Under the pieces are notes generated by a model, which made no database searches, was not told the DNA's origin, and saw only the letters and a list, made by a program, of their open reading frames with translations. A program made the translations under genes and the position numbers. DNA of 50,303 nt from Bacillota bacterium. GTDB taxonomy: Bacteria > Bacillota > SHA-98 > UBA4971. The stretch lies in the NCBI GenBank assembly GCA_012518595.1, contig JAAYRV010000004.1:1-50303 (forward strand). The letters run 5' to 3'. Below, piece by piece: positions 8,299 through 49,242 of this stretch (position 1 is the stretch's first letter; each line of letters opens with the position of its first letter).

Positions 8299-8333
8299 AG
8301 GAACAGTTTAGATACTTTATGGACTCCCTTTTT

Positions 8334-8366
8334 CACGTGGGCGGGGTATATCGACCCGCCCACGTG
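8334..8366 (+). other. Perfect 12-bp GC-rich hairpin between pdp and dacF
   Basis: CACGTGGGCGGG, 9-nt loop, CCCGCCCACGTG. A T-run precedes the stem rather than following it. Confidence 0.5.
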
Positions 8367-8423
8367 AATATGTACGTGTACAGATGCGGATCCAGCGCGT
8401 GCTATGACAGGGAGGAAGTAAAA

Positions 8424-9632
8424 GTGGGCACAAGAAGTGTCGTAGCAAGGATATTCCTTGCCGGCGTCAGCGTCATTGTGACTTTATGGGTACTTATCGC
8501 CGGAATATATGAGCCGGCGTGGGCTGAAGCACAGAAGCAGGCGCTTGTGCCAAGTATTCCTATTACTGCTGAGTCTGCTTTGATCATGGAGTGCACCTCA
8601 GGAAGGATCCTGTTTGAGAAGAACCCTGACAAACGACTCCCTCCTGCCAGTATCACTAAGATCATGACAATGCTTTTGGTTATGGAGCAAGTATCCCTTG
8701 GTAAAGTCCGATTCAGTGATATGGTGGTCACCAGTGAGAGAGCTATGAGAATGGGTGGCTCTCAAATCTGGTTAGAAGTCGGGGAAGAAATGTCGTTAGA
8801 GGATCTTATGAAAGCAATTGCCATTGTTTCTGCGAATGATGCCAGCGTTGCAGTGGCAGAGCATATTGCCGGTAGTGAAGAAGCTTTTGTGGATATGATG
8901 AATAAGCGCGGACAGGAACTGGGGATGACAGGAACCAATTTTGTTAACGCCTCAGGGCTGCCTCATCCGGATCACTACTCAACTGCGAAGGATATTGCCC
9001 TTATGTCCAGGGCATTATTACGGTATCCTAAGGTGCATGAATGGTTTACCACTTGGATCGACTATGTTCGTGACGGAAAAAACATCCTTGTGAACACAAA
9101 CCGTCTCATCAAGTCGTATGAAGGTGTTGACGGGCTCAAAACCGGGTTTACGGAAGAAGCAGGTTATTGCCTTGCAGCGACCGCCGAGAAGGGCAGCCTC
9201 AGGTTAGTCTCTGTTGTACTCAAGGTCCCGGATTCAACCACCCGATTTAATGAAGCATCAGCTCTGCTTAATCTTGGATTCAGACACTTCGCCGGGGTTG
9301 AATTGGCCAAGGAAGGTCAGGTTATTGCTGAGGTAGAAGTCACCAGAGGCGTTGTGGATAAAGTGGACATAATTTGCAAAGACCGGTTAGTCGGTGTTGT
9401 GCCGCGAGGAGAAGAAGACAAGGTAAGACACGAAATTGCGCTGCCGAGGAAGGTTGACGCACCTGTGGCAAAAGGCCAGAAGATCGGTGAGATGCTTGCC
9501 GTAACGGAGGATGGCTCGAATTTGGGCAGGATTGACCTGATAGCTTCAGAAGAGGTAAAGAGGGGCAACATTCTTAGGGTAATTTTTCGCACTACTCAGA
9601 ATCTCCTCCGTGCCTTGTTTAAGAACAATTGA
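8424..9632 (+). CDS. dacF: D-alanyl-D-alanine carboxypeptidase (sporulation-type PBP5 family)
   Basis: SITK (SxxK) and SAND (SxN) motifs. Sits directly upstream of spoIIAA as dacF does in Bacillus. GTG at 8424 lies 8 nt after GGGAGG. Confidence 0.85.
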   Translation: MGTRSVVARIFLAGVSVIVTLWVLIAGIYEPAWAEAQKQALVPSIPITAESALIMECTSGRILFEKNPDKRLPPASITKIMTMLLVMEQVSLGKVRFSDMVVTSERAMRMGGSQIWLEVGEEMSLEDLMKAIAIVSANDASVAVAEHIAGSEEAFVDMMNKRGQELGMTGTNFVNASGLPHPDHYSTAKDIALMSRALLRYPKVHEWFTTWIDYVRDGKNILVNTNRLIKSYEGVDGLKTGFTEEAGYCLAATAEKGSLRLVSVVLKVPDSTTRFNEASALLNLGFRHFAGVELAKEGQVIAEVEVTRGVVDKVDIICKDRLVGVVPRGEEDKVRHEIALPRKVDAPVAKGQKIGEMLAVTEDGSNLGRIDLIASEEVKRGNILRVIFRTTQNLLRALFKNN

Positions 9633-9660
9633 GCATAAGCCTGTGAATCCGCGTCCTCCT

Positions 9661-9689
9661 ACAGCCTCACGAGGCTGTTTTTCTTTTTT
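9661..9689 (+). terminator. Rho-independent terminator after dacF
   Basis: ACAGCCT-cacg-AGGCTGT (7-bp stem) followed by TTTTCTTTTTT. Confidence 0.75.
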
Positions 9690-9700
9690 ATGAGTCAAAG

Positions 9701-9728
9701 GAGGACTAATTATTTGGCCGGAGAATAG
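9701..9728 (+). promoter_or_regulatory. Candidate sigma-H-type promoter of the spoIIA operon
   Basis: gAGGActa (9702-9705), 17 nt, GAAT (9723-9726). This fits the RnAGGAwww-N11-12-RnnGAATww spacing. Confidence 0.3.
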
Positions 9729-9761
9729 GAAGGGGACTGGACGAGAAAAGGAGGATTGTGA

Positions 9762-10109
9762 ATGAAGACAGAGGTCAGGGTCATTGGCCGTGTTCTGGTA
9801 GTCGGAATCTGGGGCGAACTTGACCTGAATACGGTACCGAGCTTCCGCAGCGCAGTTGAAGAGCAGCTCGATGCGAATCCTGATGTAATCGACATCCTTC
9901 TTATGATGAGTAATGTTACCTTTATTGATAGCTCAGGGTTGGGAGTAATTCTAGGCAGACACAAAAGACTCAATGCCCATGGCGGGAATGTCATAGTAGC
10001 ATCCCCCTCTCTGCAAGCAAGAAAAGCCCTTGAATTATCAGGCTTGGCAGGCGTCATTCCTATTTGCGACACGGAAGATGAGGCATGGGCCAAGGCTCGG
10101 GGGGTGTGA
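9762..10109 (+). CDS. spoIIAA: Anti-sigma F factor antagonist SpoIIAA (STAS domain)
   Basis: 115-aa STAS protein with the FIDSSGLGVILG phosphoserine motif, upstream of spoIIAB-sigF. Confidence 0.92.
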   Translation: MKTEVRVIGRVLVVGIWGELDLNTVPSFRSAVEEQLDANPDVIDILLMMSNVTFIDSSGLGVILGRHKRLNAHGGNVIVASPSLQARKALELSGLAGVIPICDTEDEAWAKARGV

Positions 10110-10113
10110 CCTG

Positions 10114-10566
10114 ATGAGCGTGACAAACTATGTAACTCTGGAGTTTCCCGCGGTTCCGGAAAACGTGGAGTTTGCCAGAGTCGCAGTTGCGTGTTTCGCG
10201 TCGCAAATTAACTCTTTCACGTTGGAGGAAATTGATGATGTAAAACTAGTGGTGTCAGAAGCTATATCCAACACTGTGCTCCACAGCTACGATGTTTCCG
10301 GAGGACTTGTTCGATTATCGGCAGTAAGAAACGGTGATACTCTAACTGTCATAATCGAGGACTTTGGGAAGGGAATAGCAGACGTAGATCAGGCGAAGGC
10401 GCCGGCATTTACAACGGATCCCGATAGGATGGGTATGGGGTTCACAATAATGGAAGCATTGTCAGACGAACTCCGTGTATCTTCAGTCCCTGGAAAAGGG
10501 GTTAAGGTTGAGATGAGAAAGTCACCTCATGGGGCGGCGAAGGACAGTGATGAACCGGAAGCTTAG
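10114..10566 (+). CDS. spoIIAB: Anti-sigma F factor SpoIIAB (serine kinase)
   Basis: HATPase_c-type motifs (EAISNTVLH, DFGKGI, GMGF). ATG at 10114. About 150 aa, as expected. Confidence 0.92.
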   Translation: MSVTNYVTLEFPAVPENVEFARVAVACFASQINSFTLEEIDDVKLVVSEAISNTVLHSYDVSGGLVRLSAVRNGDTLTVIIEDFGKGIADVDQAKAPAFTTDPDRMGMGFTIMEALSDELRVSSVPGKGVKVEMRKSPHGAAKDSDEPEA

Positions 10567-11314
10567 TCAAATTCAATTTCCCACCGGGCCCCTCCTCACC
10601 GATGAAGAGGTGCATGAGCTAAAGAGGCGTATCCGCGCCGGGGATGGAGATGCACGCGAGGAATTAGTCTCGCGAAATCTTCGCCTAGTTATGAGTATAG
10701 TGAATAGGTTTTCCCTTGACGTAGATGACAAGGAAGACCTGTTCCAGGTAGGATGTATCGGGCTTCTGAAAGCAGCGGACCGATTTGACGAATCATGCGG
10801 GACTCGCTTCTCTACGTATGCTGTGCCGGTTATCCTCGGAACAATTCGGGAACACCTTCGCTCCCTGGGGCGGCTTAAGATTGGAAGAACGCTTCGTGAC
10901 AGAGCTGCCAAGGTTGAAGAATCATTAGATGCTCTCAGGGCTGAATTAGGAAGGGAGCCCAGCATTGATGAAATCGCCAAGAAAACCGGACTGCGTAACG
11001 AAGAGATAGTTGAGGCCCAAGAAGTCTTGAGGCCCATAGTATCTCTTTCCCAACCTGTCTCCTCCGATGATTCTCTGAATATTGAGGATAGAATTGCCTC
11101 CTTTTCCTTTGCAGACGAGAAAATAGAGTCTATTGCCCTTCAACAAGCTATAACGCTTCTCGATCCCACTGAACGCGCTATAGTCGAGATGCGGTTCTTT
11201 GCTGAACTAAGGCAGGTGCAAGTCGCTGAGCGACTTGGTATCTCCCAACCACAAGTAAGCAAAATTGAGAAAAGCGCACTGAAACGCTTGCGACAAGAGC
11301 TCGATGTCATGTAG
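10550..11314 (+). CDS. sigF: RNA polymerase sporulation sigma factor SigF
   Basis: Sigma-70 regions 2-4 (NLRLVMSIVNRF, FSTYAVPVILG, ISQPQVSKIEKSAL). Third gene of the spoIIA operon. Confidence 0.92.
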   Translation: MNRKLSQIQFPTGPLLTDEEVHELKRRIRAGDGDAREELVSRNLRLVMSIVNRFSLDVDDKEDLFQVGCIGLLKAADRFDESCGTRFSTYAVPVILGTIREHLRSLGRLKIGRTLRDRAAKVEESLDALRAELGREPSIDEIAKKTGLRNEEIVEAQEVLRPIVSLSQPVSSDDSLNIEDRIASFSFADEKIESIALQQAITLLDPTERAIVEMRFFAELRQVQVAERLGISQPQVSKIEKSALKRLRQELDVM

Positions 11315-11460
11315 CAGGCGAATGTATTTTCTTGCTGTATCTTCATTTCCCTCAAGCCTTATTTGCCTCTCTTCCGCATGCCACCGAATCCCTTGAATTG
11401 CGGGAGAATTAAACCCTTATCACATGCGCATAATTAGAAAAGAGAAAGGGGGCACAGCAG

Positions 11461-11667
11461 GTGTCAGTAGTCAAAGTTGTGGAATTACTTGGTGAGTCAA
11501 CGACAAGCTGGGAGCACGCGATACAGGAGGCTGTAGGCGCAGCGTCCAAGACTATTCGGAATATCACAGGCGTCGAAGTATTGAATATGACCGCCTCCAT
11601 AGAAAATGGCAAGATCGCAAAATACAAAGCCAATGTCAATGTGGCTTTCTCCGTGGACGGTACCTAA
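11461..11667 (+). CDS. Dodecin family (small flavin-binding) protein
   Basis: 68 aa. VVKVVELLGESTTSWEHAIQEAVGAASKTIRNITGVEV...GKIAKYKANVNVAF matches the recalled dodecin pattern. GTG start after AAAGGGGG. Confidence 0.7.
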   Translation: MSVVKVVELLGESTTSWEHAIQEAVGAASKTIRNITGVEVLNMTASIENGKIAKYKANVNVAFSVDGT

Positions 11668-11768
11668 GTATGAGTTCATTAGTTTTCGCTCGTTTTCCAA
11701 GGTCTTGGGTGGTCCCGCACGGTACGTACACTTTCTAGAACCAGCGATCACTTATGGTGGTCTACTGA
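11665..11768 (+). repeat. Mosaic interspersed repeat, copy A (minimal ~104-bp form)
   Basis: TAAGTATGAGTTCATTAGTTTTCGCTCGTTTTCCAAGGTCTTGGGTGGTCCCGCACGGTACGTACAC...GATCACTTATGGTGGTCTACTGA. Shares its left module, core and right module with copies B-E. Confidence 0.85.
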
Positions 11769-11812
11769 GTAATAGCTCATTTCGGATGCATTAGTCAGGG
11801 GGTATATCGAAG

Positions 11813-12319
11813 GTGCCGTCTGAGAAGGCTAAGAAGCAGATAACAAAGATGCCTGAGACTACTCAGAAGGCCCAAGAGCAAAAGCGAAGGCAAGAGGTTT
11901 ATAAGCAACTGGTGGCCGAAAGGAAACCAAAGCCTCCGTATCTCCGAAATTTTCTTGTTGCGTTTGTGACAGGCGGCGCCATTTGTTTAATAGGCCAAGT
12001 TGTCTTAGGCATCTTTATGCGGCGGGGAATGGATATCAATGCAGCGTCTGCGCCTACTCTTGCGGTCATGATTCTCTTGGGCATCGCCCTGACTGCATTC
12101 GGGGTTTATGATGAGTTCGCAGAGTTCGCCGGGGCCGGAGCTGCAGTGCCTATCACAGGGTTCGCTAACACAATCGCTGCGTCTGCCATTGATTTCAAGC
12201 ATGAAGGTTGGGTTTTGGGCATGGGGGCTAAGATGTTTATCATTGCAGGTCCTGTCATCGTCTATGGTATTTTAAGCGGAGTCTTTGCCGCTTTCATAAA
12301 GTTCATTACCAGGTTGTAA
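11813..12319 (+). CDS. spoVAC: Stage V sporulation protein AC
   Basis: Membrane protein with VPITGFANTIA...GPVIVYG motifs, followed by spoVAD and spoVAE. Confidence 0.88.
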   Translation: MPSEKAKKQITKMPETTQKAQEQKRRQEVYKQLVAERKPKPPYLRNFLVAFVTGGAICLIGQVVLGIFMRRGMDINAASAPTLAVMILLGIALTAFGVYDEFAEFAGAGAAVPITGFANTIAASAIDFKHEGWVLGMGAKMFIIAGPVIVYGILSGVFAAFIKFITRL

Positions 12320-12340
12320 CCTGAAGGGGCATACGGCGCT

Positions 12341-13351
12341 GTGGCATCAAAGAAGATTGGAAAGGCAACTGTCAAGTTCATAAATCCCCCGGTTATCATT
12401 GGGACAGGCACTGTAGTAGGACCTATGGAGGGACGTGGACCCCTTGCCGAGGATTTCGACGTGATATTGCCTGACCTGACTTGCGGGGAGAAGACCGCGG
12501 AAAGAAGTGAGCGGAAAATCCTGGAGCAAGCTGCCCAGATTGCTATAGAACGTTCAGGGATTGCAAAGAGCATGATCGATTACTACATTGCAGGCGATCT
12601 TTTGAATCAAATCATCTCAGCAAGCTTCTCCGCAAGGCAGCTGGCCATACCTTTTCTTGGCGTTTATGGGGCGTGCTCCACGTGTGCTATGGGAACGGCC
12701 CTCGGAGGCATGATCATTGACGGTGGGTTCGCTGATTACGTTCTGATTGCGTGCTCAAGTCATTATCAGACAGCGGAACGCCAATTTCGGTACCCGATAG
12801 AATTAAATGTTCAACACAAGCCTACGTCCCAGTATACTGTGACCGGCGCCGGGGCTTTGGTTCTCGCATCTTCCGGGAACGGGGCAAGGGTTACTTGGGC
12901 CACTACCGGTAAGGTCATAGATCTTGGGATTAAAGACCCATACAACTTAGGCGCTGCCATGGCACCTGCTGCTGCCGACACCTTGCTTCGGCATGTAGCT
13001 GACACCGGACATGGTCCGGATGCGTATGACTTAATCCTCACAGGTGATCTCGGGCGCCTTGGATCCGAGCTCTTCCGAGAGTTGACAAAAGACGCAGGTT
13101 GTGACTGTGGGAATAATCACAATGATTGTGGCCTTATGATCTTTGACACAAAGACCCAACGGGTAGGGGCCGGGGCGAGTGGATGTGCGTGTCCGGCCGT
13201 CATTACACTGGGCCATGTACTAAGGGAAATGGAAAGGGGAAAACTGAAGCGCGTTTTGCTCATAGCTACCGGCGCCTTGCTAAGTCCGTTAAGCTCGCAA
13301 CAAGGAGAGACTATTCCCGGAGTTGGCCATGCTATTGTAATTGAGTGGTAG
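12341..13351 (+). CDS. spoVAD: Stage V sporulation protein AD (thiolase-like fold)
   Basis: 336 aa. N-terminal GKATVKF.NPPVIIGTGTVVGPMEG is typical of SpoVAD. Operon context supports the call. Confidence 0.9.
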   Translation: MASKKIGKATVKFINPPVIIGTGTVVGPMEGRGPLAEDFDVILPDLTCGEKTAERSERKILEQAAQIAIERSGIAKSMIDYYIAGDLLNQIISASFSARQLAIPFLGVYGACSTCAMGTALGGMIIDGGFADYVLIACSSHYQTAERQFRYPIELNVQHKPTSQYTVTGAGALVLASSGNGARVTWATTGKVIDLGIKDPYNLGAAMAPAAADTLLRHVADTGHGPDAYDLILTGDLGRLGSELFRELTKDAGCDCGNNHNDCGLMIFDTKTQRVGAGASGCACPAVITLGHVLREMERGKLKRVLLIATGALLSPLSSQQGETIPGVGHAIVIEW

Positions 13352-27648: not shown

Positions 27649-29919
27649 TTGCAGGTTATGATTGGTGAACACAGCGGGTTCTGCTTTGGGGTTAAGCGAG
27701 CGGTTGAAATTGCTGAAGCGGCAGGCGCCGAAGGCACAGCCTTCACCCTCGGTCCCCTGGTTCATAACCCTCAGGTTGTCGCCAAACTAAGAGAAATAGG
27801 AATTATTCCGGTATCGGGTTTAAGTGAGATTTTAGATGGTTGTATGATAGTACCGTCCCACGGGCTACCGCCTTCTATTATTGATGAGGCCTTGACGAGA
27901 GGGCTGAGAGTCGTTAATGCCACTTGTCCGTACGTCAGGCGTATACAAGAGCGGGTAGCTGAGTTAGACAGTAAGGGCTATCAGGTGTTTATTGTTGGTG
28001 ACGAAGGACATACAGAAGTAGTCGGGCTGGTGGATTGGGCCGGAGGTAATGCAAGGGTTGTCAAAACCAGTGAGGACGTGGCATCCGGTTCCGTCGAGCC
28101 CAAGGTCGGTGTTGTTTGCCAGACCACCCAGACAATTGAGGCTTTTCGCCGGGTTCTAGCTGCCCTTGCCTTGAGGGCTAAAGAGCTTGTGGCCTACAAT
28201 ACAATATGTAATGCTACTTGTAAAAGGCAGGATGCTGCACGCAAGCTGGCACAATCAGTTGATGCCGTGATTGTGGTCGGCGGGCGAGCCAGCGCGAATA
28301 CGCGAAGGCTTGTAGAAATATGTCAGGCGGAAGGCGCTAGGGTCTACTGGGTGGAAGGGCCGGAAGACCTAAATGCCCTGGACTTTTCCGGACTCGAAAG
28401 GGTGGGGTTAACGGCGGGGGCATCAACGCCAAATTGGGTTATCGAGGAGGTCGTTGAGAGGATGAGCGCACTGGATGAAGAGAAGATAAATGAGTTGGGG
28501 GTAACAGAGATTACTGAGGACAAAATTGAGAACGAAGTTGAATGCGTTGATCTAAGTGAAGAGGCAAGCGAAAAGGAAATGCAGGAAATTCCTGAGGATT
28601 CAGTTGAATGCGCCGACAGTGAAGGGGAAGATAAGGACACACCGCAAGGAGAGCCTGAGACTTCGCAGGTGGACGAAGAAGAGCCTGAAACTTCACAGGT
28701 AGAGGAAGAGGAGCCTGAAACTTCACCGGTAGAAGAAGAGCCGGATCTTACAGGACCTGAAGAGGAGGAACCGGTGACTGTGGATATGCCGCTCCAACCA
28801 GCGTTTGTAGAGGGCGACATAGTCCAAGGTGCGGTTGTCATGGTTGAACCTGAGCGGGTCCTTGTCGATATTGGACTGAAGTCCGAAGGCGTAGTGCCGA
28901 GAAATGAAATTGCCAGAAGACAGGTAGAATCATGCGAAGGTATAGTCAATGTAGGTGACAAGATAGATGTTTTAGTCGAGAAACTGGAATCCAGCAGCGG
29001 TGAGCCACTGCTATCTAAGCGGAAGGCTGATATTGCCAAGGCATGGGATGCAATTTTTGACGCTCTTGAGAATGACGGTATAGTCGAAGGGGAAGTCACA
29101 GACGTAGTCAAAGGCGGTATCGTTGTAGATGTCGGCCTGAGGGGTTTTGTCCCTGCCTCACATGCAGGTATCCGTCCTATTCAGGATCTGGGAACTCTTG
29201 TCGGAAAGACTCTTCGAATGAAGGTTCTGGAAGCTGACAGGGATAAGAAAAACGTGGTTCTCTCCGCACGGCGAGTGCTTGAAGAAGAGCTGGCTGAAGC
29301 CAGGAAACGTGTGTTCGAATCTCTAAACGAAGGCATAATTGTCGAAGGTATCGTAAGACGTGTCGTTAATTTTGGGGCGTTTATCGACATAGGCGACGGA
29401 GTGGAAGGTCTTCTTCACGTTTCGGACATGGCCTGGACGAGAACGGAAGATCCCAAAGATGTGGTCTCAGAAGGAGAACGAATAAGAGTAAAGGTTCTGG
29501 GTGTAGACAGGGAGCGCGAGCGAATTTCATTGGGTCTCAAACAAACCCTTCCGGATCCATGGGATGACGTGACCACAAGATACCCAGTAGGTGACATTGT
29601 CAAAGGCACAGTCACCAAAACAGTGGATTTTGGCGCTTTTGTTCAGTTGGAACCTGGGATTGAAGGCCTTGTGCATATCTCGCAATTAGCTGATAGACGA
29701 GTGGAGAGGCCTGATGATATAGTCAGTCCCGGAGATGAGATTGCGGTAAAGGTCATCAGTGTAAGGCCCAGAGACCACAGGATCGGCTTGAGTCTGAAAG
29801 AAGCTCAATCCGAAGAGGAGAAGCGCGTCTATAAGAAGTACGCGGATAGATCCGATAGCCAAGGGCCTACTATTGGTGATGTTTTTGGCGATATTCTCAA
29901 GAACTCACAGGAAGAATAG
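27649..29919 (+). CDS. ispH: Fusion protein: 4-hydroxy-3-methylbut-2-enyl diphosphate reductase (IspH) joined to 30S ribosomal protein S1 (four S1 domains)
   Basis: N-terminal SGFCFGVKRAV...CPYV...GDEGHTEV...ASANTRRL IspH motifs. An acidic repeat linker follows, then four S1 repeats (GxVxxVxxFGAFVxL-like). The alternative start is ATG 27658. Confidence 0.88.
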   Translation: MQVMIGEHSGFCFGVKRAVEIAEAAGAEGTAFTLGPLVHNPQVVAKLREIGIIPVSGLSEILDGCMIVPSHGLPPSIIDEALTRGLRVVNATCPYVRRIQERVAELDSKGYQVFIVGDEGHTEVVGLVDWAGGNARVVKTSEDVASGSVEPKVGVVCQTTQTIEAFRRVLAALALRAKELVAYNTICNATCKRQDAARKLAQSVDAVIVVGGRASANTRRLVEICQAEGARVYWVEGPEDLNALDFSGLERVGLTAGASTPNWVIEEVVERMSALDEEKINELGVTEITEDKIENEVECVDLSEEASEKEMQEIPEDSVECADSEGEDKDTPQGEPETSQVDEEEPETSQVEEEEPETSPVEEEPDLTGPEEEEPVTVDMPLQPAFVEGDIVQGAVVMVEPERVLVDIGLKSEGVVPRNEIARRQVESCEGIVNVGDKIDVLVEKLESSSGEPLLSKRKADIAKAWDAIFDALENDGIVEGEVTDVVKGGIVVDVGLRGFVPASHAGIRPIQDLGTLVGKTLRMKVLEADRDKKNVVLSARRVLEEELAEARKRVFESLNEGIIVEGIVRRVVNFGAFIDIGDGVEGLLHVSDMAWTRTEDPKDVVSEGERIRVKVLGVDRERERISLGLKQTLPDPWDDVTTRYPVGDIVKGTVTKTVDFGAFVQLEPGIEGLVHISQLADRRVERPDDIVSPGDEIAVKVISVRPRDHRIGLSLKEAQSEEEKRVYKKYADRSDSQGPTIGDVFGDILKNSQEE
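28651..28740 (+). repeat. In-frame 30-bp tandem repeat x3 in the IspH-S1 linker
   Basis: Units are gagcctgaRacttcRcaggtRgaSgaagaR at 28651, 28681 and 28711. They encode (EPETSQV[D/E]EE)-like decapeptides. Confidence 0.9.
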
Positions 29920-41053: not shown

Positions 41054-41995
41054 ATGAAAAAGAAAGTTGCGCTAATTTACGGTGGAAAATCCGCAGAAAG
41101 AGAAATATCACTACGTACAGGACAGCAAGTCAGTAGCGCTCTGGTAGAGAAGGGCTTCAGCGTCACAGCTTTGGATCTGGATGACAATCTTGTATCTGCC
41201 TTGAAAGAAGCCAAGCCTGACGTCGTTTTCATCGCATTGCACGGAAAGTATGGGGAAGACGGATGCCTTCAGGGTCTTTTGGATATACTTGGATTTCCGT
41301 ATGTAGGATCCGGGGTTCTTGCCAGCGCCTTAGCTATGAACAAAGCGATTTCAAAGAAACTGTTCCGGCTCGAAGGGATTCTGTGTCCCAAGGATGTCTT
41401 AATATCCCGTCATGCATTGCAGCAACCCGGGCTTGAAGGTGTGATGAAACAAATAGAAAGGGAACTGCCCTATCCACTGGTGGTGAAGCCGAATAAGCAA
41501 GGCTCAACCATAGGATTGACTGTTGTTCGCGCCTCACAGGACCTGAAAAACTCTATCTTGCATGCATTGAAGTATGATGATGAAGTCTTGGTTGAAGAGT
41601 ATATCTCCGGCACGGAGATTACCGTAGGCGTATTGGGCAATAATGAACCTCAAGTATTGCCGGTAATTGAGATTCGTTCTGTCACAGGCCTCTATGACTA
41701 CGAAGCCAAGTACACTCCTGGGATGAGTGAGCATATCATCCCCGCAGAAATAAGTGAAGTTGCTTATAGGGCAGCTCAAGACGGGGCACTAAAGGCCCAC
41801 AGAGCCCTCGGGTGTCGAGGTATCTCCCGATCTGATTTCATTGTTACAAAGACAGACGAGACTTACATTCTGGAAGTGAACACAATACCCGGTATGACCC
41901 GGACCAGCCTAATCCCTGATGCTGCCAATGCTGCAGGGATTAAGTTTTCTGATCTTATCGCTCTTCTTGTCGAGCTTGCCCTTGACAATCAGTAG
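41054..41995 (+). CDS. ddl: D-alanine--D-alanine ligase
   Basis: MKKKVALIYGGKSAEREISL...FIALHGKYGEDG...EVNTIPGMT motifs. Confidence 0.92.
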   Translation: MKKKVALIYGGKSAEREISLRTGQQVSSALVEKGFSVTALDLDDNLVSALKEAKPDVVFIALHGKYGEDGCLQGLLDILGFPYVGSGVLASALAMNKAISKKLFRLEGILCPKDVLISRHALQQPGLEGVMKQIERELPYPLVVKPNKQGSTIGLTVVRASQDLKNSILHALKYDDEVLVEEYISGTEITVGVLGNNEPQVLPVIEIRSVTGLYDYEAKYTPGMSEHIIPAEISEVAYRAAQDGALKAHRALGCRGISRSDFIVTKTDETYILEVNTIPGMTRTSLIPDAANAAGIKFSDLIALLVELALDNQ

Positions 41996-42121
41996 CAGTT
42001 CTTTCTGTGATATTTCGGCACGAAAAAAACTTAATGAGCATTGAAGGAAACCAGGAATTCCTCCAGAAGAGTACAACTAGGACGCCCAAAGTTCAGCGGT
42101 TGTGCCTGAGGAGTGATGCTC

Positions 42122-43600
42122 ATGGATGCAACAAGCCCGAGACCGTCCAATTTGAATATAGAGAATGACTCCACTGAGCTCCTTCAAAACTTTCATCTGA
42201 TTCTTGATTCCATTGATGAAGGAATTCAAGTAGTGGACAGGAGCGGTGTGACAGTTTTCTATAACAGAGCAGCTGCAAATCTGGATAATCTGAAACCAGA
42301 AGAGGTCGTTGGTAAACACATACTGGAGGTATTTCCTTCCTTATGCCGAGAAACCAGCACCTTGCTTCAGGTGCTCAAAACTGGGCAACCTGTGTCTAAC
42401 AGGGAACAAACCTTCATGAATTACAAAGGAGATACGATAACTACAATAAACTCCACTTTGCCTGTAACGGTAGGGGGTAGGCTTATAGGCGCTGTGGAGG
42501 TCTCCCGGGACATAACACTCATACAGGAGATGGCCCACCGTATCGTCGATCTTCAGATGGAGTTGTTTGCTAAACGTGAAGGCAGGAGAGATATAGGTTC
42601 AGACCGTGCCCGGTATACCTTCAAAGACATAATCGGCGAGAGTGAATGTATACTGGATCTGAAGCGAAAAGCTGCAAGAGCTGCGGGAAGCATGTCGGCT
42701 GTCCTGGTTCACGGTGAGACGGGAACCGGGAAGGAGCTATTTGTGCAGGCGATTCACAATGCCGGTCCCAGGGGAAAAGGACCGTTTATTGCGCAAAATT
42801 GCGCAGCGTTTCCCGAAGGATTGCTCGAAGGAATACTGTTCGGAACGACAAAAGGAGGGTTTACAGGCGCTTGCGACCGGCCGGGCCTTTTTGAATTGGC
42901 AGATTCAGGTACGATGTTTCTTGATGAAATCGACTCCATGCCTTCCAGCCTGCAAGCAAAATTGCTGCGAGTCCTATCAGAGAAACGCTTGCGTCGCGTA
43001 GGTGACATAAAAGAACGCATTGTTGATGTGCGGGTTGTAGCAGCCATGACCCGATTGCCTGAGGAAGCGGTTTCCTTGGGATTACTGAGGAATGATTTAT
43101 ACTATAGGTTAAACGTTATCTGCCTGGGAATCCCACCCCTTAGAGAAAGACGCAGGGATATACCGCTTTTGATAAAGCACTTTATTGATAAATTCAACAG
43201 CCAGCTAATAATGAGTGTTAAAGGCGTCTCTCAAGAGGTTTTTCAAATATTTTTCACCTATGATTGGCCCGGCAATGTCCGTGAACTGGAGCATGCCATT
43301 GAAGGCGCCATGCATATGCTGGACGGAGACATGATTCTCCTGGAGCATCTGCCGGATCACATAAAGAAGTCAGTATCTCGCTGGGAAGACACGTCGCATC
43401 AATTCGATGATATTATTCAAGGCATAGAATTAGAAGGCGACTTTCGCGAGACTGTCCGAGAATTGGAAAACAATCTTATTCGCAGGGCTTTCGCTAAGGC
43501 GGAAGGTAATATTTCAGAGACTGCTCGTCTCCTGGGCATACCTCGCCAGACGCTTCAGTACCGCTTGAAGCGACTCGACATGCAACCGGGCAATCAGTAA
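42122..43600 (+). CDS. Sigma-54-dependent transcriptional activator (PAS sensor, AAA+ domain, Fis-type HTH)
   Basis: PAS-like N-terminus; Walker A GETGTGKE; GGFTGA (variant of GAFTGA); Walker B MFLDEID; WPGNVRELE; C-terminal ETARLLGIPRQTLQYRLK. ATG at 42122 lies 8 nt after GAGGAG, while the ORF-track start at 42113 overlaps that RBS. Confidence 0.88.
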   Translation: MDATSPRPSNLNIENDSTELLQNFHLILDSIDEGIQVVDRSGVTVFYNRAAANLDNLKPEEVVGKHILEVFPSLCRETSTLLQVLKTGQPVSNREQTFMNYKGDTITTINSTLPVTVGGRLIGAVEVSRDITLIQEMAHRIVDLQMELFAKREGRRDIGSDRARYTFKDIIGESECILDLKRKAARAAGSMSAVLVHGETGTGKELFVQAIHNAGPRGKGPFIAQNCAAFPEGLLEGILFGTTKGGFTGACDRPGLFELADSGTMFLDEIDSMPSSLQAKLLRVLSEKRLRRVGDIKERIVDVRVVAAMTRLPEEAVSLGLLRNDLYYRLNVICLGIPPLRERRRDIPLLIKHFIDKFNSQLIMSVKGVSQEVFQIFFTYDWPGNVRELEHAIEGAMHMLDGDMILLEHLPDHIKKSVSRWEDTSHQFDDIIQGIELEGDFRETVRELENNLIRRAFAKAEGNISETARLLGIPRQTLQYRLKRLDMQPGNQ

Positions 43601-43635
43601 GAGAAAATTACATTAGTTACATCTTTGGGAAATGA

Positions 43636-43651
43636 GGGCACTTCTTTTGCG
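43636..43651 (+). promoter_or_regulatory. Sigma-54 (-24/-12) promoter upstream of the ChlI-like/VWA gene pair
   Basis: GGGCAC-ttctt-TTGCG has the canonical GG-N10-GC spacing. It lies 36 nt after the stop of the sigma-54 activator gene and ~80 nt before the ATPase start. Confidence 0.6.
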
Positions 43652-43728
43652 GTATGCGCTGATTATGGCAAGGCCATAATATCAGTAGCTGCCCACCGAT
43701 GCCGCGTTATACTCAGGAGGTGCCCATA

Positions 43729-45150
43729 TTGAAAGAATATCGAGACCTTGTGGTACATGAAGGCAATCAACCACTGGTTGACGCCTTGGAAATGTCTATC
43801 CTGTCGCTCCTTACAGGCAAGCCGATTCACGTTCATGTAGAAGGTCTTCGTGGCACAGGCAAGACTACCGTTGTCAGGGCCATGAAGAGTATTCTTCCTT
43901 GTATAGAAAGAATTGCGGGATGCTCCTATAACTGTGAACCAACGAGTCCCCACTGTCCCGTTCATCGGAATCTGGGTCCTGAGGACCTGTCTCTCTTAGG
44001 CACTGAGTCAGTCTCCATTCCATTTCTTGAAATATCCCATGCTGCAAAACTCGGAACCGTTGTAGGCAGCATAGATTTGGCGAAAGTAGTTGATCCGAAC
44101 CGGCCTGAGGTAGCCCTGTTACCGGGAGTAATCCCCAGGGCGTATCGAGGCATTATTTTTGTGGATGAGATAAATCGGTTGGCAGACACCTCCCCTGAGC
44201 TCACAGACGTCCTTCTTGACGTCATGGGGACAAAACCAGGGCGCCTTCAGGTAGAAGAAACAGGCTTGCCCACTTTTACGCTTCCGGTCATGTGTTGTGT
44301 TTGGGCTGCCAGCAATCCTGATGAAGAACCGGGAGCGCTTGAAGATATCAGAAGACAATTGTCTGACAGATTCGACTTCGTAATAAACATGGGACGACCA
44401 CAAAACCATGACACAGTAAAGAGAATCCTCTCCGGTTCCAAGACTTCCTATGATTCCACATGGCTTCAACATGGGAGTTCTGTTCCTCAAAAAGCCGGTT
44501 TGCTACGGAAGATCTTCTTACCCGATGAGTTGGCATCACTCTTAGCTGAACTCTACGTTAGTTTCGGAATTGAGAGTCTAAGGGCTGTAGAGGCAATTTC
44601 TCTCGGCGCACGAGCCAGAGCCGCGTTAAACTCCAGAACCAATGTGTTGCTTGATGACATAAGAGGCGTATTGGCAATTACCCTTCGCCACCGCGTTGAC
44701 GGCGCAACACTCATTAACATAAGCAAGTTTCTTGACGAGTACGAATCCAGGCGTGGCGGGCATAGGGAACGAGACAGGCAGCCTGAAAACTCCGGAGATG
44801 ACAGAGAAGACGGACAAGCCGCGTCAGAGAATTCGAGAGCGCTGGCAAGAAGCGGTGATAATGTGGCAAGACCCGACTCTCTTTGGGACAGGCTTATGAG
44901 AGGAATGGGGTTGATTCGTCCTGATCCATTACGAAAACCTGGTCTGTCGCAGCAAAGAGGGGTTACGTCTGCAACCGGGGAATCCGCAAGACAAAGAGGA
45001 CATGGACGGCATTATGCAGCAGGTGGAGGGACAAGTATAGCCGATCCCAGGGATGTTGACGTATGCGCGCCGCCCGGTAAGGCCAAATCCCTTTTCCAAC
45101 TTTCAGGGGGGGATATTCTGTTTACTGAGGAGGATCTCAGGACAAGATGA
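43729..45150 (+). CDS. ChlI/BchI-like (Mg-chelatase subunit I family) AAA+ ATPase with low-complexity C-terminal tail
   Basis: Walker A GLRGTGKTT; ChlI-type Cys insert CIERIAGCSYNCEPTSPHC; Walker B IIFVDEINRL; ASNPDE; SDRFDF. TTG at 43729 lies 8 nt after AGGAGG; the alternative is ATG 43699. Confidence 0.75.
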   Translation: MKEYRDLVVHEGNQPLVDALEMSILSLLTGKPIHVHVEGLRGTGKTTVVRAMKSILPCIERIAGCSYNCEPTSPHCPVHRNLGPEDLSLLGTESVSIPFLEISHAAKLGTVVGSIDLAKVVDPNRPEVALLPGVIPRAYRGIIFVDEINRLADTSPELTDVLLDVMGTKPGRLQVEETGLPTFTLPVMCCVWAASNPDEEPGALEDIRRQLSDRFDFVINMGRPQNHDTVKRILSGSKTSYDSTWLQHGSSVPQKAGLLRKIFLPDELASLLAELYVSFGIESLRAVEAISLGARARAALNSRTNVLLDDIRGVLAITLRHRVDGATLINISKFLDEYESRRGGHRERDRQPENSGDDREDGQAASENSRALARSGDNVARPDSLWDRLMRGMGLIRPDPLRKPGLSQQRGVTSATGESARQRGHGRHYAAGGGTSIADPRDVDVCAPPGKAKSLFQLSGGDILFTEEDLRTR

Positions 45151-46919
45151 ATGATTTTCGTCACTTGGCCTTCTTGCGGTATGACAGTCATCGCCTGGTT
45201 AAATTGATGCTGACTGAGTTCCGGATGGGACGGGGCCTCAGGATTGGCGAAACTACGGTAATCAGCCGTAGAGTACATGTAATCTATCCAACTGAGCCTG
45301 ATGAGGTGAAAATTGTCATAAATCAGGATGCAGGTTGCGCGTTTTACTCAAGGCTGAAGAAAAACGAAATACTTCATATAGATGTCTTCCATGAAATTGG
45401 CGAAATTGACCACAGAAGAATCGCAGAAGTAATTAAGCAGGCTATACATGAGTATTTTCGCAATCCAATGCTGCACCATGCCAGAGGGCTTCTATTTCCC
45501 ACTGCAAGCGAGCTTTTGGATCTCATTGACATGCAGACAGGGAGCGGCGGGGGTCGAGTCAGCGGGTCCTTGAATTACGGCAGAAAGTTCTCTCTCAGAA
45601 AAGCCCACTACAATCACGTACATCTGGCTGCAATGTTACCTGACAATTGCCTGGCAGCGGTTTTTTATATTGTCAGCGCCATAGAAGCGGAGCTTTCACG
45701 TCAAGGGGTTGAGATTCGCAAAGTGGAGCGTATCTCCCATTTGGAGGGGAAAGGAAAGGCAGATCTCTCCCCGTATTCCAGTATCTTCGACTCACACCTG
45801 AATGAAGCAGGTCGAAGGCCTGCTGACCGCGACTGGAATTCATTGAATCAAGAATCCCGGGTGGACGCAGTGGCGTCAATGGCAGAGGAATTCGGCGGAA
45901 GAGTCAACATGGCAAAACTCCTTGAAAGCCTTACACTATCAGGGAGTATTCCTCCGGATATTCGCTCAGATGTCGGGGATCTTGATGAGGTTATAGAAAG
46001 GCTCACCTTCTTTCAACTCATAGGACGCGACATGGGCAAGTTTACTCTAACCCCGAAAGGCACTGAAGTGAGAAGCATCCTGACTTCATATGCTTCAGAA
46101 ATTGAAGCCGCAATCAGACGTCTTATCAGAAAAATGCCGATAGTGAAGAAGTTTCCTCGATATGAGGAAGGTAATTTTCGTAAGAAAGCCCGGGGTGAGA
46201 CACCGAAGATCGCAAAAACCGCAAGAGCGTTGAGTGAAGGAGAATGGTGTGACACTATCGCTGTCCCTGAGACGATCCTTACTTCCCTGGTGAGACGTGA
46301 GATGGAAGGTGTTGACTCGTCTCGGTTTTTGCGCGGGGACATACAGGTTTACAGACGTCGTCCCACACATCCTCCTGAAGTCTGCCTTTTGATAGACGCC
46401 AGCGCAAGTATGGTGGGAAGACGGATTCGAGCTGCTAAGTATCTGATACGCCACTTGACTATGGCGTGCCGGGTGAAGATCAGTGTGTTGACATTTCAAG
46501 AACGTGATGTGAAAATTCACATTGCGTCTACGAGAAGTAAAAAGGCAATTGAAGAAGGAGTAAAAAGAATCCAACCTCAAGGCCTGACTCCGCTTGCCGC
46601 AGGTATTGCTGATACACTGGATTTCATTAAAGCAAGGAAGCTAAAAGACGTCCTTCTTATCCTGATAACCGACGGTATTCCCACAATGAATCGCTGGACT
46701 GCGGATCCTGCACGAGATGCCCTCACAGCTGCAAAACGCATAGCAGACAGCAAAATCACATTTATGTGCGTAGGTCTTCAGCCTAACCGTGATTTCCTTT
46801 CTCGCCTTGTTGATGTGGCTCATGGTAAACTATATATAGTTGACGAGTTCGACAAAGACATTCTGGTGAATCTGGTAAGGGCGGGAAGACGGGAAAGCGC
46901 CAAGGGCAGAAACCGCTAG
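45147..46919 (+). CDS. VWA-domain protein (complete MIDAS) with ~400-aa N-terminal region of unknown family
   Basis: C-terminal LLIDASASM...TPLAAGI...LILITDGIPT (DxSxS..T..D MIDAS). The ATGA start/stop overlap with the upstream ATPase implies translational coupling. Confidence 0.75.
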   Translation: MNDFRHLAFLRYDSHRLVKLMLTEFRMGRGLRIGETTVISRRVHVIYPTEPDEVKIVINQDAGCAFYSRLKKNEILHIDVFHEIGEIDHRRIAEVIKQAIHEYFRNPMLHHARGLLFPTASELLDLIDMQTGSGGGRVSGSLNYGRKFSLRKAHYNHVHLAAMLPDNCLAAVFYIVSAIEAELSRQGVEIRKVERISHLEGKGKADLSPYSSIFDSHLNEAGRRPADRDWNSLNQESRVDAVASMAEEFGGRVNMAKLLESLTLSGSIPPDIRSDVGDLDEVIERLTFFQLIGRDMGKFTLTPKGTEVRSILTSYASEIEAAIRRLIRKMPIVKKFPRYEEGNFRKKARGETPKIAKTARALSEGEWCDTIAVPETILTSLVRREMEGVDSSRFLRGDIQVYRRRPTHPPEVCLLIDASASMVGRRIRAAKYLIRHLTMACRVKISVLTFQERDVKIHIASTRSKKAIEEGVKRIQPQGLTPLAAGIADTLDFIKARKLKDVLLILITDGIPTMNRWTADPARDALTAAKRIADSKITFMCVGLQPNRDFLSRLVDVAHGKLYIVDEFDKDILVNLVRAGRRESAKGRNR

Positions 46920-47005
46920 AGGCAGGATTTCCTCTGCTGTTTGGCGAATATCCCCAAAACACATATCCGGCCATTCTTATACTCTTAAAGTTAGGAGATG
47001 ATACC

Positions 47006-47455
47006 GTGCTTGCCATTGCCATAGTAGCGTTGGCATTTGCTGTTCTTGTGGCAATGTTTGCCATTCAGAACTCTGCTTTGGTTTCTGTCTCATTTTTTAA
47101 GTGGCAGCTCAAAGATATTTCTTTGGCAGTAGTAATTCTGGGCTCGGCTGCAGCAGGCGCTCTGGCTGTCGGCCTTTTTACTCTCGTTAGGGAAATCGGC
47201 CTCAGGCTTTCCCTTAGGTCATGCAACGCAAAATTGGATGCAACTACGAAAGAGCTGGATGAAACGCAAGAAAGCAGTATTCGCTTAGAGCAGGATCTGG
47301 AAAGGCTGAAAGGCGAACTTGATGTCAAGACAAGAGAGATCGAAACCGAGAAACGCCTTGTAGAAGCCCTTGAAGTTGAACTGGAAGCCACGCGGGCCAT
47401 GGAGATCCTTCCTCAGCAGGAAGAAGGTAAAGATACGCCTGATGAGCCTGTGTAA
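47006..47455 (+). CDS. LapA-domain (DUF1049-like) membrane protein with coiled-coil tail
   Basis: Two TM helices (FAIQNSALVSVSFF...) followed by an E/L/K-rich heptad-like C-terminus. Confidence 0.6.
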   Translation: MLAIAIVALAFAVLVAMFAIQNSALVSVSFFKWQLKDISLAVVILGSAAAGALAVGLFTLVREIGLRLSLRSCNAKLDATTKELDETQESSIRLEQDLERLKGELDVKTREIETEKRLVEALEVELEATRAMEILPQQEEGKDTPDEPV

Positions 47456-47502
47456 CATATATTGCTGAAATAGATAGGATGAAGTAGTTGGGGAGTGAGA
47501 GA

Positions 47503-49242
47503 TTGACCAATTGCGTATGGAAAGTATCAGAAGTACATGAAGAGACCCGAGCAAAGGGCAAGATTATCAGTAATGCTTTGGGCCTTCCTCCTCTTGTCGC
47601 AGACTTGATGGCTCAAAGAGGAATCACGGACGCAAGTTGTGCGGATGCGTTTTTGCGGGCGGATCTTACGGATCTTGAAGACCCGTACCTCCTTACTGAT
47701 ATGGATAAGGCAGTTGCAAGACTGATTCGAGGGATAGAAAATGAAGAGAAGATTCGGGTGTACGGTGACTATGATGTAGACGGCATTACATCCATATGCG
47801 TCCTCATGGATGCCCTGGGCAGTCTGGGGGCAGACATTGACTATTATATTCCTGACCGTGTTGACGAAGGGTACGGAATGAACCCTGAGGCAGTCACCGA
47901 CATAGCAAGAGACGGTACATCCTTATTGATTACGGTGGATTGCGGTATTACAGCATCATCTGAAATTGAGTTGGCCGAAAGTCTTGGGATGGACGTGATC
48001 GTTACGGATCACCATGAACCTCACGGAGAGATTCCGTCTGCTGTTGCAGTTATCAATCCCAAGCGTTGCGACGATGAATACCCCTTCCGAGATCTTGCAG
48101 GGGTAGGTGTCGCCTATAAGTTGGTTCACGCCCTTCTAATGCGCGTCAAAGGCACATCCAATGTCTTCGATCCGCCTGATCGCCTTCTCGACCTCGTGGC
48201 GCTGGGCACTATTGCTGACGTGTCTCCGCTTACCGGAGAGAACAGGATATTTGCAAAGCAGGGTTTGGCAAAGATGAACCGGACCGAAAATTTGGGGCTT
48301 AAGTGTCTGATTGAAGTTTGCGGCCTTAGCAATCGTAGAATTACAGCGGGAACTGTAGGTTTCGTAATCGCTCCGCGCCTTAATGCAGCAGGCAGGATTC
48401 GCGATGCGTCACTGTGCGCAGAACTTCTGTTGACTGATTCACCCAAGGAGGCTATGGACATAGCCAGGTTTTTAGACCGGGTCAACTCGGAGAGGCAAGA
48501 TCTGCAGCAGCTGATATTCGATGAAGCGTCATCTATGGTGGAAACCTCTGACGGCCGGGCTGTTGACAGTGTCCTTGTCTTGGCAAATGAAGGATGGCAC
48601 CCGGGGGTAATCGGGATCGTCGCGTCCAGGCTTGTAGAGGAATTCAATCGCCCTACGATCATGATATCTCTTGACGGTGATGAAGGTAGAGGTTCAGGGA
48701 GAAGCATCCCTGAATTTGACTTGTACAGAGCGCTCTGTGAATGCCAAGGATCTCTTCTTCGTTTCGGAGGACATAAGCATGCTGCAGGAATTGCAGTATC
48801 CCGCGATGCAATTGACGAATTCCGCCAGGAAATAAACGAAGTCGGGCGAAGCGTTCTCAGCGAAGATGATTTTCTACCGAAAATCATCTTAGATCGTGAG
48901 CTGACCCTGGATGAGATTGACTTGGAAGTCGCAAAGGGTATTGCAATGCTTGCGCCGTTTGGCGTCGCGAACCCGACACCTATGTTTCTGTCAACCGGAG
49001 TTAGCCTCAAAGAATATAGAGGTGTCGGGGCAGGCGGCAAGCACTTGAAACTGAAACTCTCCCAAAGCGGTACCGCCCATGACGGCATAGGGTTCGGCCT
49101 GGGCTATTTGACAGCTGAACTTTACTCGCATCGTGCAAAGGATGTTGATCTAATCTATAGAATTGAGGTTAACGAATGGAATGGAACAATTCAGCCGCAA
49201 CTTAATGTAAAAGGTTTGAGAGTCGCTGAAAATCAGACTTAA
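47503..49242 (+). CDS. recJ: Single-stranded-DNA-specific exonuclease RecJ
   Basis: DHH motifs (GDYDVDGITS, TVDCG, VTDHH) and DHHA1 (GGHKHAAG). TTG at 47503 lies 7 nt after GGGAG; the alternative is 47488. Confidence 0.9.
   Translation: MTNCVWKVSEVHEETRAKGKIISNALGLPPLVADLMAQRGITDASCADAFLRADLTDLEDPYLLTDMDKAVARLIRGIENEEKIRVYGDYDVDGITSICVLMDALGSLGADIDYYIPDRVDEGYGMNPEAVTDIARDGTSLLITVDCGITASSEIELAESLGMDVIVTDHHEPHGEIPSAVAVINPKRCDDEYPFRDLAGVGVAYKLVHALLMRVKGTSNVFDPPDRLLDLVALGTIADVSPLTGENRIFAKQGLAKMNRTENLGLKCLIEVCGLSNRRITAGTVGFVIAPRLNAAGRIRDASLCAELLLTDSPKEAMDIARFLDRVNSERQDLQQLIFDEASSMVETSDGRAVDSVLVLANEGWHPGVIGIVASRLVEEFNRPTIMISLDGDEGRGSGRSIPEFDLYRALCECQGSLLRFGGHKHAAGIAVSRDAIDEFRQEINEVGRSVLSEDDFLPKIILDRELTLDEIDLEVAKGIAMLAPFGVANPTPMFLSTGVSLKEYRGVGAGGKHLKLKLSQSGTAHDGIGFGLGYLTAELYSHRAKDVDLIYRIEVNEWNGTIQPQLNVKGLRVAENQT

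Follow-up and report, generated by a model that had tools for sequence, protein, structure and literature searches.

The question raised by this locus is what two overlapping genes, coding for a ChlI-like AAA+ ATPase and for a protein with a von Willebrand factor A (VWA) domain, do for their host and from which promoter they are transcribed. The genes occupy positions 43729-46919 on the forward strand of contig JAAYRV010000004.1 from the Bacillota bacterium assembly GCA_012518595.1 (GTDB lineage Bacteria; Bacillota; SHA-98; UBA4971); positions 1 to 50,303 of the contig were analysed and are hereafter called the window. An earlier note, made from the letters of this DNA, had read them as probably a module for an uncharacterised client under sigma-54 control. 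The best explanation of the data is that the pair is a translationally coupled operon of two genes, inherited vertically among Bacillota that form endospores, and we lean slightly towards its being a ChlI-derived AAA+/MIDAS (metal-ion-dependent adhesion site) machine of endospore formers, expressed in the forespore and involved in metal-dependent maturation or remodelling of an unlinked client. The features that carry this reading are as follows.

43652-43681, forward strand: sigmaF/sigmaG-type promoter identified by consensus match, with the -35 box GTATG (43652-43656), a 15-nt spacer and the -10 box GGCCATAATA (43672-43681).
43716-43722, forward strand: ribosome-binding site GGAGGTG, 6 nt ahead of the conserved TTG start and kept in all relatives.
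43729-45150, forward strand: gene for the ChlI/BchI-derived AAA+ ATPase of 473 aa, assigned by TIGR and PDB matches and conserved motifs.
45147-45791, forward strand: N-terminal domain of the VWA protein (aa 1-215), an orphan rich in His and Asp, described from the AlphaFold2 (AF2) model and conservation.
45850-46140, forward strand: helical or winged-helix-like middle region of the VWA protein (approximately aa 235-330), from AF2 secondary structure and weak profile matches.
46359-46919, forward strand: C-terminal VWA domain with a complete MIDAS (D417-x-S419-x-S421, T481, D509), matched by Pfam VWA_2, VWA and VWA_3.

The longest open reading frame (ORF) of the ATPase gene begins at ATG 43699, and the start conserved among relatives is TTG 43729, at the position of which one relative (G095) has an ATG. 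The description of the product in the earlier note as a 473-aa ChlI-like ATPase with the motifs GTGKTT, VDEINRL and SDRFDF was confirmed by these motifs and by matches to TIGR02030 and to ChlI structures in the PDB; the Cys-rich segment is present as well, and so is a tail of some 130 aa rich in Arg, Gly and Asp. The best matches, namely TIGR02442 (1e-42), BchI/ChlI TIGR02030 (4.6e-31) and PDB ChlI (1e-21), all lie below the curated cut-offs, so the protein is, as judged from its sequence, a divergent ChlI-type relative. Its alignment with ChlI covers about 300 residues and takes in Walker A/B, the LPxIE segment, the sensor and the Arg-finger motifs. Conservation among 36 homologues is 95% or higher in Walker A/B, in the Cys motif and around the sensor and the Arg finger. 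The Pfam family AAA_3 (MoxR) is matched with 20.7 bits (4e-4), under its cut-off of 27, and ChlI is the best match.

The Cys-rich insert had been counted by the same note among the ChlI hallmarks, of which the homology of the segment with ChlI stands, whereas the four Cys proved to be specific to this ATPase family. The segment, C-x6-C-x3-C-x5-HCP-x-H at 43903-43965 (C68-H89 when numbered from ATG 43699), aligns with the Cys-less LPEIEVVANDPFNSxPSDP of ChlI, and the Cys4/His motif is thus a feature of this family that is absent from the aligned ChlI sequences and may provide the motor with a Zn or Fe-S site. At the other end of the protein (45040-45147) a variable, disordered low-complexity linker is followed by the conserved DP..V...APPxxARxLxxL....E.V.TEEEL, an acidic C-terminal peptide which is a candidate docking peptide or MIDAS ligand, the latter by analogy with the acidic ligands of integrin-type VWA domains.

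The VWA protein has a length of 590 aa (45147-46919), and its start overlaps the stop of the ATPase gene by ATGA. This overlap and the complete MIDAS, both noticed before, were borne out: of 34 loci compared, 24 show the 4-nt overlap and in 33 any gap is no longer than 1 nt, and 20 homologues all keep D417, S419, S421, T481 and D509. The best Foldseek matches of the VWA domain include the NorD VWA from NorQD complexes as well as VWA domains of the integrin type, and by sequence it matches BchD 2x31 (6e-9) and the C-terminal third of TIGR02442. In the full-length model (predicted local distance difference test, pLDDT, 79.5) only VWA domains are matched structurally.

The N-terminus of this protein was indeed found to match no known family. 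Modelled alone, the domain is predicted with high confidence (pLDDT 89.5, predicted template modelling score, pTM, 0.88), and its fold has no match in PDB (best E 0.014, TM <=0.3) or BFVD, and Pfam gave no match to this region across 28 members. When 1.84 billion cluster representatives were searched with a profile, only 168 proteins came back, with no instance of the domain in another architecture, the full-length matches being the N-terminus of proteins of approximately 550-650 aa. Residues H44, D61, H77, H82 and H157 are invariant and D79, H154, H159 and E180 near-invariant, and they form the motifs HxDxxH and HxxHxH on predicted neighbouring strands, which together with the model suggests a metal site. 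A metallopeptidase of the LAS/M23 type, considered for the HxD...HxH motifs, was rejected as Foldseek gave no such match. The middle region shows weak profile matches to the winged-helix proteins Sso10a, SloR and CggR (E 0.007-0.55).

The leader of the operon contains a putative promoter of the type read by the forespore sigma factors, about 40 nt ahead of the ribosome-binding site. The consensus strings of sigmaF (GYATR-N15-GGnnAnAnTA) and sigmaG (GHATR-N18-CATnHTA) are established for B. subtilis, and GTATG-N15-GGCCATAATA is a perfect match to both. When the genome was searched with the patterns GYWTR-N14-16-GGnnAnAnTR and GHATR-N17-18-CATnHTA, there were only two sites which met both and were followed by an ORF with a ribosome-binding site. 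The second of these, on contig C61:111373 outside the window, precedes the gene for a 170-aa ClpP-related protein, possibly TepA-like. As a control in the same genome, consensus matches were found ahead of lonB (870 bits), of a gene for a sleB-like cortex hydrolase and of that for an M23 protein which is anchored in the membrane and weakly matches SpoIIQ, and by eye also ahead of YetF/DUF421-like and DUF1657-like genes.

This promoter is conserved well beyond the window. Among 40 orthologous loci from many Bacillota lineages, most of them without any gene for a sigma-54 enhancer-binding protein (EBP), 25 have GGnnAnAnTA at a distance of 28-60 nt before the ATPase start. Shuffles, 1000 in number, put the expectation at 1.1 and never exceeded 6; there were 0 matches on the opposite strand, and of the remaining genes in these loci 2.6% have the pattern. 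A GnATr-like -35 was found 15 nt upstream of this family-wide -10, which is sigmaF-like (GG...A.A.TA), the version in the window also fitting sigmaG. The GTATG box directly abuts the -12-like box of the match that the earlier note took for a sigma-54 promoter. Since both the -35 and the -10 boxes are intact in all ten genomes of the GTDB family to which the organism belongs, whereas the GG or GC of the abutting match is broken in five of the ten, the conserved element of the leader is the forespore-type promoter and not the -24/-12 site. A perfect 8-bp palindrome, ATTATGGC-N3-GCCATAAT (43662-43680), overlaps the spacer and the -10; it is imperfect in relatives and may be an operator or a coincidence. 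No Rfam RNA element beyond noise was detected in 41900-47600 at E <= 10.

The host itself carries sporulation genes. In the window a forespore cluster at 8319-13351 includes a dacF-like carboxypeptidase gene, spoIIAB (155 bits), a gene for a sigma factor of the SigF/SigG family, spoVAC and spoVAD. Contig C131 carries another gene of the SigF/G family, with a higher score, and spo0A and spoIVA are present in the genome. In an even set of 401 genomes of the phylum, the N-terminal domain occurs in 115 (~29%), of which 111 possess SpoIVA as against 213 of the 286 genomes without the domain (odds ratio 9.5, Fisher p = 3.8e-8). The four carriers without SpoIVA comprise three metagenome-assembled genomes 75-94% complete and G063 (98.8% complete), which carries a diverged paralogue only. 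The carriers include Thermosediminibacteria, Symbiobacteriia, Negativicutes, Syntrophomonadia and digester lineages, and cultivable ones are Fervidicola ferrireducens, Caldanaerovirga acetigignens, Thermosediminibacter, Sporolituus thermophilus and Symbiobacterium. No homologues were seen in Bacillus or Paenibacillus except weak matches to the VWA part, and B. subtilis and C. difficile were not among the homologues found, though neither was searched directly.

In most loci the pair lies between secD/secF, with queA-tgt-yajC further upstream, and (yrvD/LapA)-recJ-apt-relA-dtd. Its surroundings differ in Fermentithermobacillaceae, which indicates that the pair moves as a two-gene unit without a conserved third gene. 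A comparison of about 45 orthologous neighbourhoods for a conserved third partner, such as a client, found none, the neighbours being those of the standard secDF / yrvD-recJ-apt-relA-dtd block. The next gene in the window codes, as had been noticed, for a LapA-domain protein; it stands between the pair and recJ in 13 loci and is absent in many others, so it is not specific to the pair, and RecJ and RelA/SpoT are encoded downstream of it in the window. At 27649-29919 the window also contains a single ORF of 756 aa that fuses IspH (LytB) with ribosomal protein S1 and matches the bifunctional family NF000907 (741 bits). The LapA gene and the loci of a diverged paralogous subfamily are:

47006-47455, forward strand: gene for a LapA-domain membrane protein (YrvD-like), Pfam LapA_dom 8.7e-15.
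L074 5170-12343, L075 6901-11925 and L077-L079: loci of the paralogous subfamily.

In this subfamily (~31% identity) one ChlI-like ATPase gene is followed by one to three tandem genes coding for proteins with the N-terminal domain and VWA, near gerM (Germane)-racE (glutamate racemase)-rph (RNase PH)-rdgB (Ham1).

Put together, the following course of events can be suggested for the pair. Transcription would start mainly from the sigmaF/sigmaG-type promoter, inside the developing spore. The ATPase would form a ring, as in BchI-BchD and NorQ-NorD, and the VWA protein would dock on it through the MIDAS, plausibly by binding the acidic peptide at the ATPase C-terminus. Hydrolysis of ATP would then drive the His-rich N-terminal domain, which may hold a metal ion for delivery or may itself be the effector, and the outcome would be the metal-dependent maturation or remodelling of a forespore protein encoded elsewhere.

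A bolder form of this proposal, which we put forward tentatively and regard as clearly less probable than the general one, is that of a self-contained metal machine specific to the forespore. In it the ChlI-type ring with its Cys4 site would drive the MIDAS partner, whose N-terminal domain would be a metal-centre fold not seen before that takes the place of the chelatase H subunit, and the machine would insert or extract a metal ion in a protein or small molecule of the spore core, or would do so on the forespore chromosome through the winged-helix region. This would be an endospore-maturation step absent from the Bacillus and Clostridium models.

Several observations weigh against a forespore machine. 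The mechanism rests on analogy with BchI-BchD and NorQ-NorD. SpoIVA was found in 324 of the 401 genomes of the phylum sample (81%), which together with shared ancestry gives the co-occurrence test limited power. An exact -10 match is absent in 15 of the 40 loci, the paralogous subfamily lacks the sigmaF-type motif, and its carrier G063 has no SpoIVA match at E <= 1e-20. Within the GTDB family the EBP gene always accompanies the pair, and no other sigma-54 target was found beside it. Finally, the junction between the EBP and ATPase genes is crossed by two contigs from metatranscriptomes (43565-43745 and 43612-43763; runs X30 and X31), which include the stop of the EBP gene, the two candidate promoters and the start of the ATPase gene; this fits read-through transcription or DNA carry-over and favours neither promoter.

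Of the alternatives, control by sigma-54 survives best. It concerns two features immediately upstream of the forespore promoter:

42113-43600, forward strand: gene for a sigma-54 EBP (PAS - AAA+ - Fis-type helix-turn-helix, HTH) with the loop GGFTGA, start at 42113 or 42122, assigned by Pfam domains.
43636-43651, forward strand: sigma-54-like -24/-12 match GGGCAC-N5-TTGCG, with two mismatches to TGGCAC-N5-TTGCA.

According to this explanation the PAS domain of the activator senses a signal and the protein, together with sigma-54, turns on the pair from GGGCAC-N5-TTGCG, either as the sole promoter or as a second, vegetative one in this family. The earlier note was right about the activator, the domain set of which was recovered by Pfam (Sigma54_activat 3.7e-57, PAS_4 for PAS, AAA_lid_14 and HTH_8) along with the GGFTGA loop, and rpoN, on which such a promoter depends, is present (Sigma54_DBD 3.2e-63, contig C237). 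An orthologue of the activator with 63-84% identity is found directly upstream of the pair in all ten genomes of the GTDB family, and this adjacency is kept although the genes further upstream vary, which speaks for this explanation, as do the lack of any other sigma-54-like site or divergent sigma-54 target beside the EBP orthologues and the usual position of EBP genes next to their promoters in this genome. The linkage stops at the family, since no EBP gene is found at this position in any other lineage among the orthologous loci compared, so the EBP is, on the genome comparison, a lineage-specific neighbour of the pair. Its orthologues have GSFTGA or GGFTGA as the sigma-54 contact loop instead of the GAFTGA usual in the genome, where 12 of the 13 other EBP central-domain matches contain GAFTGA and one has no loop in the aligned stretch.

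The promoter match itself does not rise above chance. GGGCAC-N5-TTGCG does exist with the spacing given by the earlier note, 36 nt past the EBP stop, but it carries two mismatches, and 16 matches of this quality were observed in the window with 14.6 expected from shuffles. Across the genome, strict TGGCAY-N5-TTGCW sites are enriched at N5 (17 versus 2-8 at other spacers), whereas degraded sites of the type in the window show no clear enrichment (34 at N5 versus 15-33 at other spacers). The gap of 36 nt leaves no intergenic room for an upstream activating sequence (UAS), in comparison with the 224-322 nt which separate the stop of three other EBP genes in the genome from their strict-consensus promoters. 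No conserved palindrome suitable as a UAS was found upstream of the match, the sole nearby one (43548-43575) being situated inside the HTH-coding sequence and not kept as a palindrome in relatives. The GG-N10-GC core is retained in five of the ten family genomes, three with TTGCG and two with CCGCA, and has lost GG or GC in the other five (G235, G204, G053, G288 and G171).

The chance frequency, the short gap and the broken core make the sigma-54 reading weak, and with no EBP gene beside the pair outside the family the regulon proposed in the earlier note was not upheld. We consider sigma-54 control of the pair an unlikely explanation that still deserves to be kept in mind. As far as the sequence comparison goes, GGGCAC-N5-TTGCG is probably not a conserved promoter; most likely the match is fortuitous or at best a secondary input, and some sigma-54 input may exist in this one GTDB family.

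Two side observations belong here. Strict TGGCAY-N5-TTGCW sites adjoin five other EBP genes of the genome (C135:6048, C226:21592, C163:1659, C155:611 and C273:16228), of which three share the strand with their EBP and are those to which the 224-322 nt gaps refer; the five are useful for calibrating locally what real sigma-54 promoters of the organism look like. A block TCTGGGAAA-N2-3-GGG(G/A)CA(C/T) at 43620-43641 (relatives L002-L004 and L080-L088), just upstream of the -35, is conserved across the two genera of the family, including genomes that have lost the sigma-54 GG, and a forespore regulator or the EBP could bind there.

The next explanation, that of a housekeeping or stress module expressed outside sporulation, for instance from a SigB-like or sigma-A promoter, takes both the forespore motif and the link with sporulation as results of shared ancestry. 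It has in its favour the position of the pair within a housekeeping synteny block (secDF, recJ, apt, relA, dtd), the fact that most of the phylum sporulates, as seen from the SpoIVA count above, the similarity of SigB, SigF and SigG promoters to each other, which is established knowledge, and fragments of RNA from these genes in bulk digester metatranscriptomes, where the public data (Logan) contain only short, sparse and undirected contigs of the region. It does not account well for the promoter, in which the extended GGnnAnAnTA and not just GGG-A- is 20-fold enriched in a strand- and position-specific manner, and where GTATG and GGCCATAATA fit sigmaF/G and not GTTTAA/GGGTAT. No sigma-70-type promoter was found in the region between the EBP and ATPase genes, and the N-terminal domain is present in only 4 of the 77 genomes without SpoIVA. 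This explanation is regarded as improbable, and more so than sigma-54 control.

That the pair is the motor of an ordinary class I chelatase for cobalt, nickel or magnesium, with a CobN/BchH-type subunit located elsewhere or missed in an incomplete assembly, is very improbable: its best family matches are indeed chelatase subunits (the putative cobaltochelatase TIGR02442, BchI/ChlI and BchD) and public sources label the homologues 'magnesium chelatase subunit D', but, in agreement with the earlier description of a coupled ChlI-type AAA+ / VWA-MIDAS pair without an H/CobN subunit, no match to CobN-Mg_chel (PF02514) was obtained in the 92%-complete genome, while control genomes scored, nor in the orthologous neighbourhoods, the ATPase scores far under the curated cut-off (146 vs 779 bits), and the AAA-like N-terminal half of the D subunit is replaced by the orphan domain. 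An anti-phage defence system was also considered and rejected, as neither protein of the pair nor the LapA protein was matched by PADLOC.

If a forespore machine is the correct interpretation, the pair marks a step of sporulation which is not shown by B. subtilis or C. difficile, the two species, Bacillus subtilis and Clostridioides difficile, in which sporulation has been worked out almost entirely. The ChlI/BchD chelatase motor would also be extended to a role outside tetrapyrrole chemistry. The pair adds an orphan and probably metal-binding fold, and the 'subunit D' labels of the homologues are misleading. No paper was found in the literature that links a chelatase-like ATPase/VWA pair to the forespore or describes this pair, and no mention of its family was found in published sporulation gene lists. 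The locus also illustrates that a two-mismatch -24/-12 match beside an activator gene is no proof of a sigma-54 regulon unless its conservation is checked.

Among known systems, the pair can be compared first with magnesium chelatase BchI/ChlI and BchD/ChlD (PDB 1G8P, 2X31, 6L8D, 8OSF) and the fused ChlI-ChlD of TIGR02442, to which it is similar in the ATPase alignment, in the VWA/MIDAS and in having a low-complexity linker between its AAA+ and VWA parts. The chelatase D subunit unites an AAA-like half, a Pro/acidic linker and the VWA-MIDAS in one protein, whereas here these elements are split between two genes: the linker-like tail sits on the ATPase, and in the VWA protein the orphan His-rich domain and the winged-helix-like region, which have no AAA similarity, take the place of the AAA-like half. 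The pair further differs in its Cys4/His site, its forespore-type promoter and sporulation-linked distribution, the lack of H/CobN in the genome and its low scores against the family cut-offs. It thus falls outside the class I chelatases on two defining features, the architecture of the D subunit and the H subunit.

With NorQ/NorD, CbbQ/CbbO and RavA/ViaA the pair has in common the two-gene AAA+ / VWA-MIDAS logic, and, as said, its VWA domain has NorD among the best structural matches. Systems of the NorQ/NorD type perform ATP-driven remodelling of a client or metal insertion into it, and by analogy the same principle may be expected here. NorQ, CbbQ and RavA belong to the MoxR class while the ATPase of this pair is of the ChlI clade, the MoxR-VWA pairs adjoin client genes (nor, cbb or the like) whereas no client gene adjoins this one, and the N-terminal domain of its partner protein is unrelated to those of the NorD/CbbO/ViaA-type partners.

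As for regulation, the locus resembles sigma-54 operons with an adjacent PAS-AAA+-HTH activator (PrdR-, AtoC- or RocR-type) in having a full-domain activator upstream and rpoN in the genome, and differs from them in that its promoter match is degraded, not conserved and too near the activator gene, with a loop that deviates from GAFTGA. The forespore-type promoter of the pair has the same architecture as those of the B. subtilis forespore genes dependent on sigmaF/sigmaG, e.g., lonB, spoIIQ and sleB. The pair is of the AAA+/VWA-MIDAS type, and what is new in it is the orphan domain and the unexpected developmental setting.

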